Assembly: GCA_000004695.1 (NCBI GenBank)
Contig: CM000151.3
Location: forward strand, 8,192,001 to 8,256,000
Length of the DNA: 64,000 bases
Source: Dictyostelium discoideum
Taxonomy: Eukaryota
Direction of reading: 5' to 3'
The translations under genes were made by a program, and so were the position numbers. Of the stretch, positions 1 to 64,000 are shown piece after piece. The notes below the pieces were generated by a model. The model searched no databases and was not told where the DNA came from. It was given only the letters and a program-made list of their open reading frames with translations. Position 1 is the stretch's first letter; each line of letters starts with the position of its first letter.

Positions 1-3000
1 GAATTTAAAAGAAAATCATTATCATTAGCAGCACACAGAGAAACTCTTAAAACTACAATCACTGAATACATTTTTAATAATCCATCATTATATTCAATGC
101 CACCACCATTATCATTATTAAATATTCAAAAACAACAACATGGGCAACAAGGACGACAAACACAATCAACAAATAAAAGATTTAAAGTATCAGAAACTTT
201 ACATTCAAATTTAAATAATAAAAAAAAAAAAAAAAATAACTATAATGATAATGATGATGATGATGAAGAAATAAAGTATGAATATATTGAATTTGAAGAA
301 TTTATAAAATTAAAATCAACCAATTTATTAAAATCATTTATGGAATTAGATATAGTAGTTTTAAGTGAAACTAAACCAAATTTTAATTCATTTCTCAAAA
401 TGTATCATACATATGAAAGATTACAGGTTGGTATTAAAATTATTCTAAAGTATGGAAATACAATTTCAGATATAAAAAAAAGAGAAGAAATTTTAAAAGA
501 AATCAATAAAATTGATAGAAATAATAAAAGAGGTTTTAATAAATTAAAAGAATTGAGAAAATTAGTAGCAATAGAATTCCCAAATCAAACAAACTTTTAT
601 TTCTATTATTGGAAAGCATATCGTGAGAATATTAAAAAACTTGGTAAAGTTCCTAAAAAATCAGGTTATCCAGGTAATATACAAATGTTTGGACACCCTC
701 TTTTACAAGATGAATTAGTCAATAATCAAATCAATACTCAAGGAGGTGATGGAAATATAGAACAAGTAGAATTATTATCATATATTACATATTCAGATAA
801 TGAAAGTGATAATGAAGTTGAAGAAGAAGAAGAAGAAGACATAATAAATGAAAAGGAATTATTTAATTTATCTAATAGACTTAGAAAAGCAACTATTTTT
901 GATATATCCAATAGGTATTCAGATTTACTCAATTCATATTTAAAAGCAATTAAAGAATGTAATATTGAAAAGCTAGAAGAGATTGATACAAATAATCCAA
1001 TGTTTAAATTAGATGTTTCAAAATATCATTGTTTTCAATTACCAAATGAAAAAGAAGATATAATGAAAATTTGGTATTACTTTAATAAACACTCCTTTAA
1101 ACAAATGATACCAAATTATGATATTCTCATTGAATTCCTTTCAAGTGTAACTAATATTATTCCACCTTTTGAATTGAAAATATCTAATATTAAAGACCCA
1201 CTATTTGGAAAGCTTGGAACATTTCTAACACATCAATTATATAAAAAGAATTTTAATGTAATTGAATTATTATTAAATAGTTTTGATAATTTTAGTTTTA
1301 CACATCAACCAGAACAAATATCAGCCATTATAGATAAAGAGAGAGTTTTATTTCATATTAATGGTGAATTACCCCAAGTTGATAAAAAGTTTAGTTTTCA
1401 AATAATTAGAATAATTGAATTGATAATGGACAAGTTTAATAAACTCACTAAAGATCAAAATGGTTTTGAAAATATTTCGACAACATATCGTCTCATTTTA
1501 AATAATTTATATGATCAATTACTTAAAGTTAAAGGTTTAACAATCGATCAATTAGAATATGTTAGATCAATTATTCCTCAACAATTATTTAATAATAATA
1601 GTTTTGAAACCTATCGTATCTTTTTCTATCTTAATATCAGATCTTCAAAATTAACAAAATACATAATTGAAAGACCTGGAATTCCAGATTTTATTCAAAA
1701 TTCAACTGAACTCCTTTATAATCATTTCTACGATACTATTGGACCAATTTCAAATGAAATTATTGGTTTCGATTTAAGAAAATATTTGAATTATGATTTA
1801 TTCACATATGATTATATATTAGGTAGAGAATCAAATCAATACAGTAGTAGTAGTAGTAGTAGTAGTAGTAGTAGTAGTAGTAGTAGTAGTAGTAGTAGTA
1901 GTGGTAGTAGAGGTAGTGGTAGTAGTGGTGGTGATGATGATAGCAATTACAATAATAAGAAATACATAACTCAATTCGATACAATATTAAAAGAATTAAT
2001 TAAACAATTATCATTCAATATTTGTACAAACGTTAGTAATAGAGATGAAATTGTTGATGGTAAAGATTTCTTTAATCATTCATTAAATGAAGATTTAAAA
2101 TTCAGTTTAGATATTGGTAGAAAAGATTTATTTTGGGAATTATTAGATTGGATTCAACAATATATGATTAAAAATGAAAATTTAATGAAGCATCGAGTTT
2201 ATCAATTTAATTCACCATATGAATCATTATTACCAACTGGTACAATATTTTCAAATGTAAAAATAATAAAAAAAGAATTACCATCACCATCAACAACAAC
2301 AATTGAAAGCACTTTTTTAAAAATTGATAATTTTGAAAAACCAATACCAAATGAATCAACGATTAAAGTTAATTGGAATTCAGATAAATTAATTCAACCA
2401 TTCAAACCAATTTCAAAACTAATAAATTCATTTAAATATTCAGAGGAAGTTATGGATTCAATTTGTAAAGTAATGAATGTAAATGAAATTCAAAGATTTA
2501 TTCAATATAATTTCTTTGTATCGTTTTTTCAAAATGAAATTTATTCATTTTCATTATTTTATAGTAGAGAAGATTTAATATTATTCCTATTAAATAATTA
2601 TAATATTGATATTGATCTTCATTTCCCATTATTCAAACCAGATAGAGGACATTCACAATATTTAGAATGTAAATTCATCTTTGAAAATCATTTTGAAAAA
2701 GTAAAGAATATTTCAAAATTAAATTTAAAACAAAAATGGTTCGAGCTTCGTTGTTTACAATTCCCATTGGTTTTATTAAATTCTTTTTTTAAATACATTT
2801 GTAAAGAAAAGAATATCACAAGATATAATCAATTCATTCAAAATGATAATTTACAAATTAGAAAACAAGTAATTAAAAAAACAATTGAAATATTAATTGA
2901 TCAATTCTTATCAAGTACAGATAATAATGATGATGATGAAGATGAAGATGAAGATGAAGATCCTAATCAGAATTTTGCATATATATTAAAAAATCAAAAT

Positions 3001-63100: not shown

Positions 63101-64000
63101 TATTACCAACTAGTACAATATATCCAAATGTAAAAATAATTAAAAAAGAATTGCCACCATCAACAACAAAAACAAAAACAACAACATCAACATCAACAAC
63201 AACAACAGCAGCAACAACAACAACTGAAAGTAGAATATTAAAAATTGATAATTTTGAAAATCCAATACCAAATGAATCATCAGTTAAAATTAATTGGAAT
63301 GAAAATAAATTAGATGAATCATTTAAACCAATTTCAAAACTTATAAATTCATTTAAATTTTTTGAAGATGTATTGGATTCAATTTGTATAGTAATGAATG
63401 TAAATGAAATTCAGAGATTTATTCAATATAATTTCTTTGAAACAAATTTCCAATTTGCAATTTACTCTTATTTAGTATCTATAAATAGAGATGATGTACT
63501 TTCATTCCTATTGAATAATTATAATATAGAGTTTGACGTATTCCCATTCTTTCAACCTGAAAGAAGATATTCTCAATATTTAGAATGTAAATTCGTATTT
63601 GAAAATCATTTCGAAAGAGTAAAGAATATTTCAAATTTAAATATAGAATGGTGTGAAAGAAGAGATTTAGATTTCCCATCCACTGTATTGAATGGGTTTG
63701 TTAAATTTCTTTGTAAAGAAAAGAATATCGCAATCTATAATCAGTTTATTCAAGAAAATGGTAATTTAGAAATTAGAAATAAAATTTTTAAAGAAACAAT
63801 TGAAGTAATGAAAAAAGAATTAGATGAAAACATTGAAGATGAAGATGATGATACTGAGAATTTCGCATTCATATTAAGAAATCAAAAACATAAAGTTTTA
63901 CTCATTCAATCAATTATTGAACAACCAGATACTCAATTATACTTTAAATCAGCTTTAGATCAAGTTTTATTAGAATTAAAAGAGAAAAGAAAAACTGATA
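60136..64000 (+). CDS. Family copy 15, 3'-partial (runs off the window). About 1288 codons are open from the ATG at 60136. It is a near-identical sister of copy 14. It is not in the ORF track, presumably because no stop is reached.
   Basis: I checked the reading frame at 60901, 61081, 61501, 62041, 62341, 62701, 62821 and 63001-64000. All are in phase with the ATG at 60136 and give the expected paralogous peptide; no stops were seen in the checked stretches. Confidence 0.75.
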   Translation, partial: MEIPEILFWKVFKNKFIFNEILNQIHNNEWVEYDDPNKYSVYNRCKFGNTHSLEIMIKNDLLPLIKDKIKNNHHIKIDHFSIKNLFLKLSKKQPQQQNIQEEQTINNNNNNNNNNNNNNNNNNNKNKYKDEDYLEIIELFMKYRRDEFEITDLIKMAVKTYSPDVIRLLVNEPYSVMIYPTTFEFAIINSNLATIKELINLEPTNFKNYGIKLISEEFKRKSLSLAAHRKTLKTTITEYIFSNPSLYSIPPPLSLTNNQTQEQPSTNKRLRLSETLESNNNSNNNNNNDDDNNDNNNDNEEIKYEYIRFEEFIKLKSSNLLKSFMKLDIVKGSFKKNFNSFIKMYHPYERLKVDIRIILKYGDIMLQQVSGEILDKMNKIDTNKQKGFNKLKELRKLTVIEFPKQNNFYYYYWKAYGEKIKGLDRIPPKSISNPDEQDFFQYLDSNEEKQYVEEDYFFGNGNDEEENTSLENNNNININNNNEEEEEDDDEEEEEGDEDEDDGNDQELPEMDSGSDIDIENEVDEETINDLENKKRFINGFNKFRKASVYDISNRYSDLDNSYLKAIKECNIEMLEEVNKNNPNFTLNVSKFHYFQLPTESEDVLKLWKFFVGHGFKQFQYSQEIFLEFVSSVTDVLSPSKLEIVTLCTPLLRKIEFLLFDTLFRKKFNAFEILFKRFSFLEPFSKDQYTELLNQEKVIFNINGKLVQFDNSHLNQTIRLISLVVARFHLHTLNAPQHPSSINNSTKPAQQSYSIIINYLYDQLLRIKGLTINHLELVRSIIPEHFLSDAHSQVFRVFFYLNIRSSKFSKYIIERPGVDTFMYISEDYAENYNCSEPPTTNVDDIGFDIRKYLNLDIFTYDFILGRESIQSHGINTADSADKFNNNNNNNNNNNNNNNNKKYKTQFDTILKELMKQLSLDICTNIDRDRITGGQDFFNHSLSADLKFSLDIRRKDIFWELLDWIQQYMIKNENLIKYLVYQFNSPYESLLPTSTIYPNVKIIKKELPPSTTKTKTTTSTSTTTTAATTTTESRILKIDNFENPIPNESSVKINWNENKLDESFKPISKLINSFKFFEDVLDSICIVMNVNEIQRFIQYNFFETNFQFAIYSYLVSINRDDVLSFLLNNYNIEFDVFPFFQPERRYSQYLECKFVFENHFERVKNISNLNIEWCERRDLDFPSTVLNGFVKFLCKEKNIAIYNQFIQENGNLEIRNKIFKETIEVMKKELDENIEDEDDDTENFAFILRNQKHKVLLIQSIIEQPDTQLYFKSALDQVLLELKEKRKTD

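Follow-up and report, generated by a model that had tools for sequence, protein, structure and literature searches.

The window analysed here, a 64-kb stretch of Dictyostelium discoideum DNA (GenBank assembly GCA_000004695.1, contig CM000151.3, positions 8,192,001 to 8,256,000), carries a tandem array of large paralogous genes, most of which are still open. Selective maintenance of the reading frames, a rate of protein change about sevenfold above that of neighbouring genes and the coincidence of variable sites with ligand-contact positions in a divergent ankyrin-repeat domain make these genes a candidate binding repertoire. In our estimate, the chances are about even that the copies constitute a diversifying set of intracellular binding or adaptor proteins driven by biological conflict.

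A tandem array of paralogous genes

The copies were mapped by tblastn with one copy as the query and by the positions of the terminal motifs, revealing 15 family copies in the window plus small fragments. The GC content is about 22% throughout. All open reading frames (ORFs) of at least 200 amino acids (aa) lie on the plus strand and are mutually similar, as had been claimed in a first-pass annotation of this DNA, which described every major ORF as a same-strand paralogue. Eight ORFs are complete (c3, c4, c6, c7, c9, c11, c12 and c14) and measure 1242-1395 aa, close to the 1250-1400 aa given in that annotation; c1 and c15 are open and cut by the window ends, and c2, c5, c8, c10 and c13 are decayed, which agrees with the mixture of intact and decayed genes described there. 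The features are listed below, with reference to an independent long-read assembly (GCA_054883475.1) and to the divergent strain ACTFIR (GCA_054859385.1).

c1, 1-3405, plus strand: subfamily A; open frame cut at the window start; the full gene has 1327 aa in GCA_054883475.1 (L004:2579-6562)
c2, 4265-6614, plus strand: pseudogene, 5'-truncated, beginning at about residue 599; two frameshifts (tblastn frames 2, 1, 3); no counterpart in ACTFIR
c3, 6851-10750, plus strand: intact, 1299 aa; equals DDB_G0277643 (100% identity); tail HLVYKYHLTWL
c3 ankyrin-repeat-like domain, 7001-7555, plus strand: aa 51-235; hypervariable sites aa 133, 137-139 and 166-167
c4, 12055-16116, plus strand: intact, 1353 aa; subfamily A; no counterpart in ACTFIR
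c5, first ~28 codons, 16351-16431, plus strand: start of a pseudogene, cut off from the remainder by an insertion
Terminal inverted repeat (TIR) element inside c5, 16432-18622, no strand assigned: ~2.19 kb; terminal inverted repeats of ~296 bp, 94.6% identical; no long ORF
c5, remainder, 18623-22398, plus strand: pseudogene with several frameshifts (tblastn)
c6, 22671-26762, plus strand: intact, 1363 aa; subfamily A
c7, 27196-31353, plus strand: intact, 1385 aa; subfamily A
c8, 32169-34674, plus strand: pseudogene; frameshifted, with large deletions inside the gene and, at 33081-33197, a small fragment in inverted orientation (tblastn)
c9, 36651-40523, plus strand: intact, 1290 aa; most divergent member of subfamily A; ACTFIR counterpart with conversion tracts
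c10, 42081-42558, plus strand: N-terminal fragment only, residues ~1-168; subfamily B type
c11, 43037-46765, plus strand: intact, 1242 aa; subfamily B
c12, 47430-51617, plus strand: intact, 1395 aa; subfamily B; aa 136-208 above the Pfam Ank_2 gathering threshold
c13, 51854-54908, plus strand: pseudogene with frameshifts; interior partly low-complexity; last ~100 codons missing
c14, 55429-59616, plus strand: intact, 1395 aa; subfamily C
c15, 60136-64000, plus strand: open frame cut at the window end; subfamily C; 95% identical to c14

Pairwise aa identities support the three subfamilies proposed earlier: subfamily A (c1-c9) at 73-82%, subfamily B (c10-c13) with 82% between c11 and c12, and subfamily C (c14 and c15) at 95%. 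Between subfamilies the identity falls to 59-64% overall and to 43-49% in the middle block, and at the nucleotide level the copies differ from one another by 5-33%. The N-terminal types that had been used to mark these subfamilies do not track them, since the MEILEIL start is common to c8 and c9 of subfamily A and to c14 and c15 of subfamily C. Regarding the C-terminus, described as an invariant HP[IM]YKYHLTWL, only YKYHLTWL is invariant, being present in all 12 of the C-termini available; the HP[IM] part fails in c3, which has HLV at this place.

Maintenance of the reading frames and rate of protein evolution

When the observed substitution spectrum and number of differences were applied at random to c3 or c11, the neutral copies obtained carried on average 21-48 stop codons each, and an open frame survived in none of 2000 simulations. 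Eight alignments of intact copies at the nucleotide level contained 98 indels, all 98 of them multiples of three, and seven positional orthologues are also open in ACTFIR. As far as can be judged from the sequence, selection maintains the reading frames and the copies are functional genes. Both the maintained frames and the orthologues in ACTFIR uphold the earlier view of a genuine array of paralogous genes.

The new genomes used for comparison come from a deliberate sampling of divergent tropical 'D. discoideum' isolates (PMC12745789). The rates were calibrated on the syntenic locus of a singleton paralogue, compared between the AX4-type genome and ACTFIR with the same estimator as used for the array. 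At this locus, the synonymous divergence (dS) and the ratio of non-synonymous to synonymous divergence (dN/dS) were 0.072 and 0.08 for the neighbouring LIM-domain gene, 0.19 and 0.11 for the neighbouring Prp18 gene, and 0.093 and 0.29 for the singleton paralogue DDB_G0274845 itself. The array copies have collinear counterparts in ACTFIR at dS 0.070-0.120, and as these values match the baseline of the neighbour genes, the counterparts are positional orthologues.

Pooled over seven orthologous pairs, the array showed a dS of 0.086, a dN of 0.060 and a dN/dS of 0.70, with 0.43-0.95 for the individual pairs, so that amino-acid change relative to silent change is about seven times faster than in the neighbouring genes. 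Inflation of these ratios by the AT-rich genome is discounted because the same estimator gives low values for the neighbours. At the protein level, change in the array genes is truly far faster than in ordinary genes.

Protein architecture

Each protein consists of a conserved N-terminal module of ~50 aa, four to five divergent ankyrin repeats, a disordered poly-Asn/acidic linker and a helical part; according to the structural models, the latter would comprise ~1000 aa of all-alpha structure without detectable relatives, followed by the conserved tail. The first ~50 residues contain ten invariant residues, EILFWKVFKN, and were predicted with low confidence by AlphaFold2 (AF2). The N-terminal domain showed no internal similarity to the remainder of the protein.

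Pfam searches with the full-length copies and the distant paralogues gave nothing over threshold except Ank_2 in c12, and a sequence search of the PDB gave no match. In c12, aa 136-208 reached 28.6 bits compared to a cut-off of 27.3 bits (E 2e-6), whereas the homologous sites of other copies stayed under the cut-off (20.7 bits in P0004, 15.8 bits on Ank_3 in c1 and 14.1 bits in c7); Ank_2 and Ank_3 were the only Pfam families recurring among 24 superfamily members. The AF2 model of aa 50-222 has a predicted local distance difference test (pLDDT) score of ~85 and shows the stacked helix-loop-helix repeats of ~33 residues of an ankyrin solenoid, and its fold matches include the ankyrin domains of FEM1B and ASB7, as ankyrin domains only. 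An hhalign comparison with a consensus designed ankyrin repeat was in register but weak (E 0.048, probability 1%). The ankyrin pattern of the second helix is retained (LEIIELLM, PDVIRLLV, ATIKELIN), and the canonical TPLH is replaced by DLI.IAA and FEFAI. The N-terminal ankyrin-type repeats suspected from the outset are confirmed by the c12 match and by the confidence of the model. A domain homologous to that of c3 was found in all full copies, where it represents ~15% of the protein, and a weaker second ankyrin-like site recurs near aa 1123-1145 of c12, aa 967-989 of c11 and aa 900-957 of P0021.

The C-terminal 1024 aa were modelled as almost entirely alpha-helical with a pLDDT of 47. A Foldseek search with this model returned generic alpha-solenoids at E values of at least 0.03 and a TM-score of ~0.1, which were treated as uninformative.

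The N-terminus is hydrophilic, and neither a signal peptide nor a consistent transmembrane or hydrophobic segment was detected, the maximum 19-residue hydropathy being at most 1.67 and located at differing positions among the copies. The proteins are soluble and presumably intracellular. The role in adhesion that had been suggested, like one in recognition at the cell surface, is unlikely, given the lack of a signal peptide or transmembrane segment; within the cell, the proteins may act in recognition or defence. Motif searches revealed no Walker A (checked in c3, c7, c11 and c14), HExxH, CxxC or RING-type motifs, in line with the absence of catalytic motifs reported before. Pfam scans detected no transposase, reverse transcriptase or integrase domain, no NACHT or NB-ARC domain and no Ig/IPT/TIG domain.

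Variability within the ankyrin domain

Among 17 array-type sequences, one or two residue types were found at most positions of the ankyrin domain. The hypervariable positions, in c3 numbering, are 133 with 10 residue types, 137, 138, 166 and 167 with 6-7 types, and a few others, and they recur with a period of ~33 residues. Repeat positions 2, 3, 5, 13, 14 and 33, those randomised in designed ankyrin binders, were assumed here to be the contact positions, and the register of the hhalign alignment with the consensus ankyrin repeat placed them on seven residues of c3. Five of these seven rank in the top ten of the 69 aligned sites for variability (P = 4e-4), and the proportion of non-synonymous differences (pN) was 0.39 at the contact positions vs. 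0.13 in the framework. These data provide positive, but not conclusive, evidence of a putative diversifying binding surface.

Origin of the conserved termini

The near-invariant termini had been attributed to selection in the first-pass annotation. Between paralogues, conservation is concentrated in three blocks (c3 aa 1-260, ~806-1010 and 1176-1299), and synonymous divergence is low there too. When codon differences were counted at residues identical between subfamilies, the synonymous codon-difference fraction was 0.063, 0.072 and 0.069 in the three conserved blocks vs. 0.18 in the middle block (chi-square p from 2e-4 to 2e-3 for single pairs). At the nucleotide level, the N-terminal block is as similar between subfamilies (85-91% identity) as within subfamily A (87-92%), whereas the middle block is 67-70% identical between subfamilies and 83-92% within subfamily A. 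From these block identities, the genes are mosaics whose segments differ in coalescence age, a pattern that gene conversion or recombination among paralogues would be expected to leave.

As synonymous divergence drops at the ends as well, their conservation is mainly a consequence of mosaic ancestry or gene conversion. A run-length permutation test of the GENECONV type between subfamilies was less informative than the synonymous comparison by blocks, the tracts it detected being short and modestly significant. Conversion has also gone on after the separation of the strains. In ACTFIR, the counterpart of c9 contains tracts that are at least 3% closer to c6, c1, c3 or c7 than to c9. In addition, dS between c14 and c15 is 0.039 vs. 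0.071-0.076 to their ACTFIR counterparts, both strains having two copies at this place, which points to conversion between both copies after the split of the strains.

Selection on the termini is not the main cause of the pattern, since the synonymous divergence also drops about threefold and the dN between orthologues is nearly uniform along the protein (0.042-0.060). Nevertheless, the attribution was partly right, as two segments were constrained in a pooled scan of the orthologues (dN/dS 0.28 for aa 31-60 and 0.17 for aa 1255-1284, compared to 0.70 gene-wide) and the terminal motifs are retained in distant paralogues.

Turnover and rearrangement of the array

The spacers between units are mostly unalignable AT-rich DNA, unrelated to each other, so the similarity between units is limited to the coding sequence. 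The TIR element interrupts c5 at codon ~28, the host sequence continuing precisely behind the insertion; its ends are TTGTTGTTGGGATTTTTTTTTGAATTTTCGCTTTCTAAACGGCAGTGA and the reverse complement of it, and a GC-rich patch is located at ~17440-17570. This 2.19-kb element is probably a non-autonomous DNA transposon. The inverted fragment inside c8 (33081-33197, minus strand) corresponds to family residues ~719-757 and indicates a local rearrangement during decay.

In ACTFIR (contig JBTAPF010000017, 236-381 kb), the sequence covered was confined to loci L003, L007 and L008. The block of c6-c15 is inverted there with respect to c1-c5 and lies ~75 kb apart, from which a large inversion between the strains follows; one of its breakpoints falls within the array, separating c5 from c6. 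The copies c2 and c4 have no ACTFIR counterpart. Between the counterparts of c8 and c9, the ACTFIR array carries a gene for a 378-aa transposase of the DDE_1 family (PF03184; L008:12944-14338), to which nothing corresponds at that place in the window. With five of 15 copies decayed, the gain or loss of c2 and c4, and discordant segments along the genes, the array displays the marks of both birth-and-death evolution and conversion; it has evolved by tandem duplication, decay of some copies, transposon insertion, inversion and episodic gene conversion.

Annotation, independent assembly and extent of the array

The match of c3, DDB_G0277643, belongs to chromosome 2 of D. discoideum AX4 (8.48-Mb record). 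DDB_G0277585 is c9 annotated from a downstream ATG, DDB_G0277653 is c11 with a 15-aa intron modelled, and the annotated members are all named 'hypothetical protein'. In GCA_054883475.1 the protein sequences of c3, c9 and c11 are identical, the annotated lengths of c6, c7, c9, c11 and c12 equal those of the ORFs here, and window positions 1-20793 align in a single collinear segment at 99.63%. As this independent assembly reproduces the array, it is not an assembly artefact.

The array runs past both window ends. A further family copy was found immediately upstream of c1 on the minus strand, both in GCA_054883475.1 (L004:1-1914) and in ACTFIR (L003:1319-5218), raising the array to at least 16 copies, 15 of them within the window. 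Thus, the array exceeds the window and is not purely head-to-tail. A cofilin/ADF-domain gene adjoins this minus-strand copy and bounds the array in ACTFIR.

Two minus-strand gene models unrelated to the family are present in the AX2-214 annotation, neither with a recorded Pfam match: one of 170 aa at ~10955-11723, in the c3-c4 spacer, and one of 110 aa at ~35276-35796, in the c8-c9 spacer, the latter containing a stretch rich in cysteine and an acidic run. Minus-strand ORFs exceeding 100 aa occur only at 12759-13202 and 23372-23872 and are poly-Leu/poly-Ser frames opposite the poly-Asn/acidic linkers of c4 and c6; they are low-complexity artefacts, not genes. Rfam and tRNA scans of the window gave no matches.

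The sole paper naming a member is a survey with I-TASSER that reported fold similarity of DDB_G0277585 to inositol trisphosphate (InsP3) receptors (PMC8280847), a similarity that probably reflects a generic helical-repeat signal. Apart from this survey, searches of the literature by topic and by gene identifier brought up no work on the family, and the impression that it was poorly described proved well founded, members being named only as hypothetical proteins. The genes are already public in databases; what they encode is an uncharacterised family in which three quarters of the protein is orphan.

Breadth of the family

The size of the family was determined by an exhaustive profile search based on hidden Markov models, in which aa 276 to the end of ten copies were searched against 1.84 billion cluster representatives, yielding 27 representatives at E < 0.001. 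A word-indexed protein search yielded little with alignments of the N-terminus and the core and missed most known members, so it was left aside for this purpose. The ten of these that were looked up all belong to D. discoideum strains, D. cf. discoideum or D. dimigraforme, and one is the singleton AX4 paralogue DDB_G0274845. The distant paralogues are 24-32% identical to c3 and retain the N-terminal E.LFWKVF.N.YL..I...W and the C-terminal IIKYYY...YK[FY]DLNWL.

An alignment search with the N-terminus detected two 'partial' gene models of Dictyostelium purpureum, and at least four relatives were found within ~45 kb of its contig GL870942 (52-95 kb), on both strands, with the N-terminal motif retained. 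Since these relatives are clustered, the superfamily and its clustering are older than the split between D. discoideum and D. purpureum. The two partial proteins are annotated with 76-79 aa, their gene models being apparently split, and the cluster has an FNIP-repeat kinase gene and a saposin gene as neighbours. Neither the exhaustive profile search nor the N-terminal alignment search found a member outside group-4 Dictyostelium.

Discussion

In the explanation that we consider best, the variable ankyrin groove, probably together with the divergent middle region, would bind a copy-specific target, and all copies would be tied to a common partner or fate through their constrained ends, the N-terminal module and the C-terminal tail. 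Diversification would be driven by conflict with intracellular bacteria or other parasites, or between strains. A more far-reaching version is an amoebozoan intracellular recognition system, in which the hypervariable ankyrin groove and the orphan helical domain of ~1000 aa would act as a germline-encoded repertoire, connected by the invariant N-terminal module and C-terminal tail to one common downstream machine, the targets being intracellular bacteria or their effectors, or conflict between strains; we regard this version as rather unlikely.

Several points weigh against a diversifying binding repertoire. Literature searches gave no reports of expression, localisation, interaction or phenotype for any member. 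The dN/dS of 0.7 could reflect relaxed constraint instead of positive selection, since dN exceeded dS in no window of the pooled orthologue scan once multiple testing was corrected for (the best one, aa 387-415, reached a dN/dS of ~5 with an uncorrected p = 0.006). At the ankyrin domain, the contact positions are also solvent-exposed and hence the least constrained anyway, the seven contact codons themselves have a high and noisy proportion of synonymous differences (pS), and both the set of contact positions and the consensus sequence were assumed at the outset. Moreover, pseudogenes already make up one third of the copies, and for three quarters of the protein there is neither a confident structure (pLDDT 47) nor a homologue, so that the main activity could sit in this orphan part and not be binding at all.

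The main rival explanation is a redundant family under relaxed constraint, in which nearly dispensable, weakly constrained copies are in slow decay with neither diversifying selection nor conflict, and the hypervariable ankyrin positions are just the least constrained surface residues. This we hold to be possible, if doubtful. A dN/dS below 1 in every orthologous pair, a corrected window scan without dN > dS, five pseudogenes among 15 copies, the confinement of c2 and c4 to one strain and the tighter constraint on the singleton paralogue (dN/dS 0.29) are all as slow decay would have them; but neutral drift cannot account for ten copies still being open at 9-21% nucleotide divergence, no indel shifts the frame, seven orthologous pairs have open frames on both sides, and the variability is localised and periodic at ankyrin contact positions in place of being spread across all exposed residues. 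A transposon-encoded or mobile ORF, or collapsed or expanded repeats in the assembly, might be thought of in view of the high copy number on one strand, the TIR element inside c5 and the DDE_1 transposase gene of the ACTFIR array. However, the units lack terminal repeats and have mutually unrelated spacers, no transposase, reverse transcriptase or integrase domain is encoded, the copies diverge by 5-33% and occupy the same relative positions in ACTFIR with the dS of the flanking genes, and the long-read assembly is collinear with the window; an origin of this kind is extremely improbable. The mobile and artefactual readings, which the first-pass annotation had itself named as its possible refutation, are refuted by the lack of terminal repeats and mobile domains, the positional orthologues and the 99.63% match of the independent assembly.

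Two further alternatives concern the function of the proteins. As substrate receptors of cullin-type ubiquitin ligases, they would use the N-terminal module as an F-box-like or adaptor-docking element and the repeats to select substrates. Short conserved terminal modules joined to variable repeats in large, fast-evolving tandem families are known from such receptors, and we take EILFWKVF.N.YL to be superficially like an F-box core. Even so, no F-box, F-box-like, PRANC, SOCS or BTB Pfam match was obtained at E values up to 10 on nine N-termini, nor an F-box match at E <= 1 with 24 members in full length; comparison of the N-terminal profile with nine F-box sequences by hhalign gave a probability of 0.07% and no aligned segment, and the 50 N-terminal residues are predicted at low confidence. 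Such a role seems very unlikely, and F-box identity of the module was rejected on the Pfam and hhalign negatives. A place at the cell surface, in recognition or adhesion, is still less probable: ankyrin repeats are typically cytoplasmic, and neither a signal peptide, a consistent hydrophobic segment (maximum 19-residue hydropathy at most 1.67) nor Ig/IPT domains were detected. What speaks for it is the evolutionary style, which resembles that of the tgr allorecognition genes of the same genus (PMC12745789). Identity with Tgr proteins was rejected on the hydrophilic N-terminus, the absence of a transmembrane segment and the absence of Ig/TIG matches.

With respect to known systems, the repeats of the array are very divergent compared to natural ankyrin binders and designed ankyrin repeat proteins (DARPins), most copies being below the Pfam thresholds, and the proteins carry an additional ~1000 aa without detectable relatives or a confident fold. 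The F-box and BTB-MATH families of nematodes and plants and the ankyrin/PRANC families of poxviruses and giant viruses are lineage-specific tandem families with elevated dN/dS and many pseudogenes. They share with the array a small conserved module joined to a variable repeat domain, but an F-box, PRANC, BTB or SOCS module is not detectable here; ANK-PRANC identity was rejected because no PRANC match was found at E <= 1 and the ankyrin domain is N-terminal. The NLR/STAND receptors of fungi and animals have ankyrin, TPR or WD repeats as sensors. They resemble the array in being intracellular, in their hypervariable repeat domains and in recombination or conversion within clusters, but the array proteins lack NACHT, NB-ARC and Walker A, and this identity was also rejected, on the absence of NACHT/NB-ARC Pfam matches and of Walker A in c3, c7, c11 and c14.

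The tgr family, including tgrBC, is similar in its tandem locus, duplications, pseudogenes, recombination between paralogues, strain rearrangement and rapid protein evolution (PMC12745789). However, Tgr proteins are polymorphic cell-surface proteins (PMC12745789), whereas those of the array have no signal peptide or transmembrane segment and an ankyrin/all-alpha architecture. Also in contrast to tgrBC, the majority of array copies can be paired with stable positional orthologues across strains, and their turnover looks slower. The array is therefore similar in style to other fast-evolving tandem families of repeat proteins, but with a different, apparently intracellular, architecture.

At least 64 kb of the genome are taken up by the array, whose ten open genes each exceed 1200 codons and still bear the annotation 'hypothetical'. 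The array illustrates cleanly that apparent conservation of the termini among aligned paralogues can be produced by gene conversion, and ten chromosome-scale genomes (PRJNA1300491) now allow a direct comparison with the cell-surface tgr locus. If the copies are merely redundant and decaying, the finding is an ordinary one; if the recognition-system reading is true, it would represent a family of innate immunity or biological conflict without an NTPase, TIR, F-box or other known signalling domain. What has been obtained is a well-defined, testable candidate and not a demonstrated new mechanism, through which a set of anonymous ORFs now becomes a concrete candidate for a diversifying intracellular binding repertoire.

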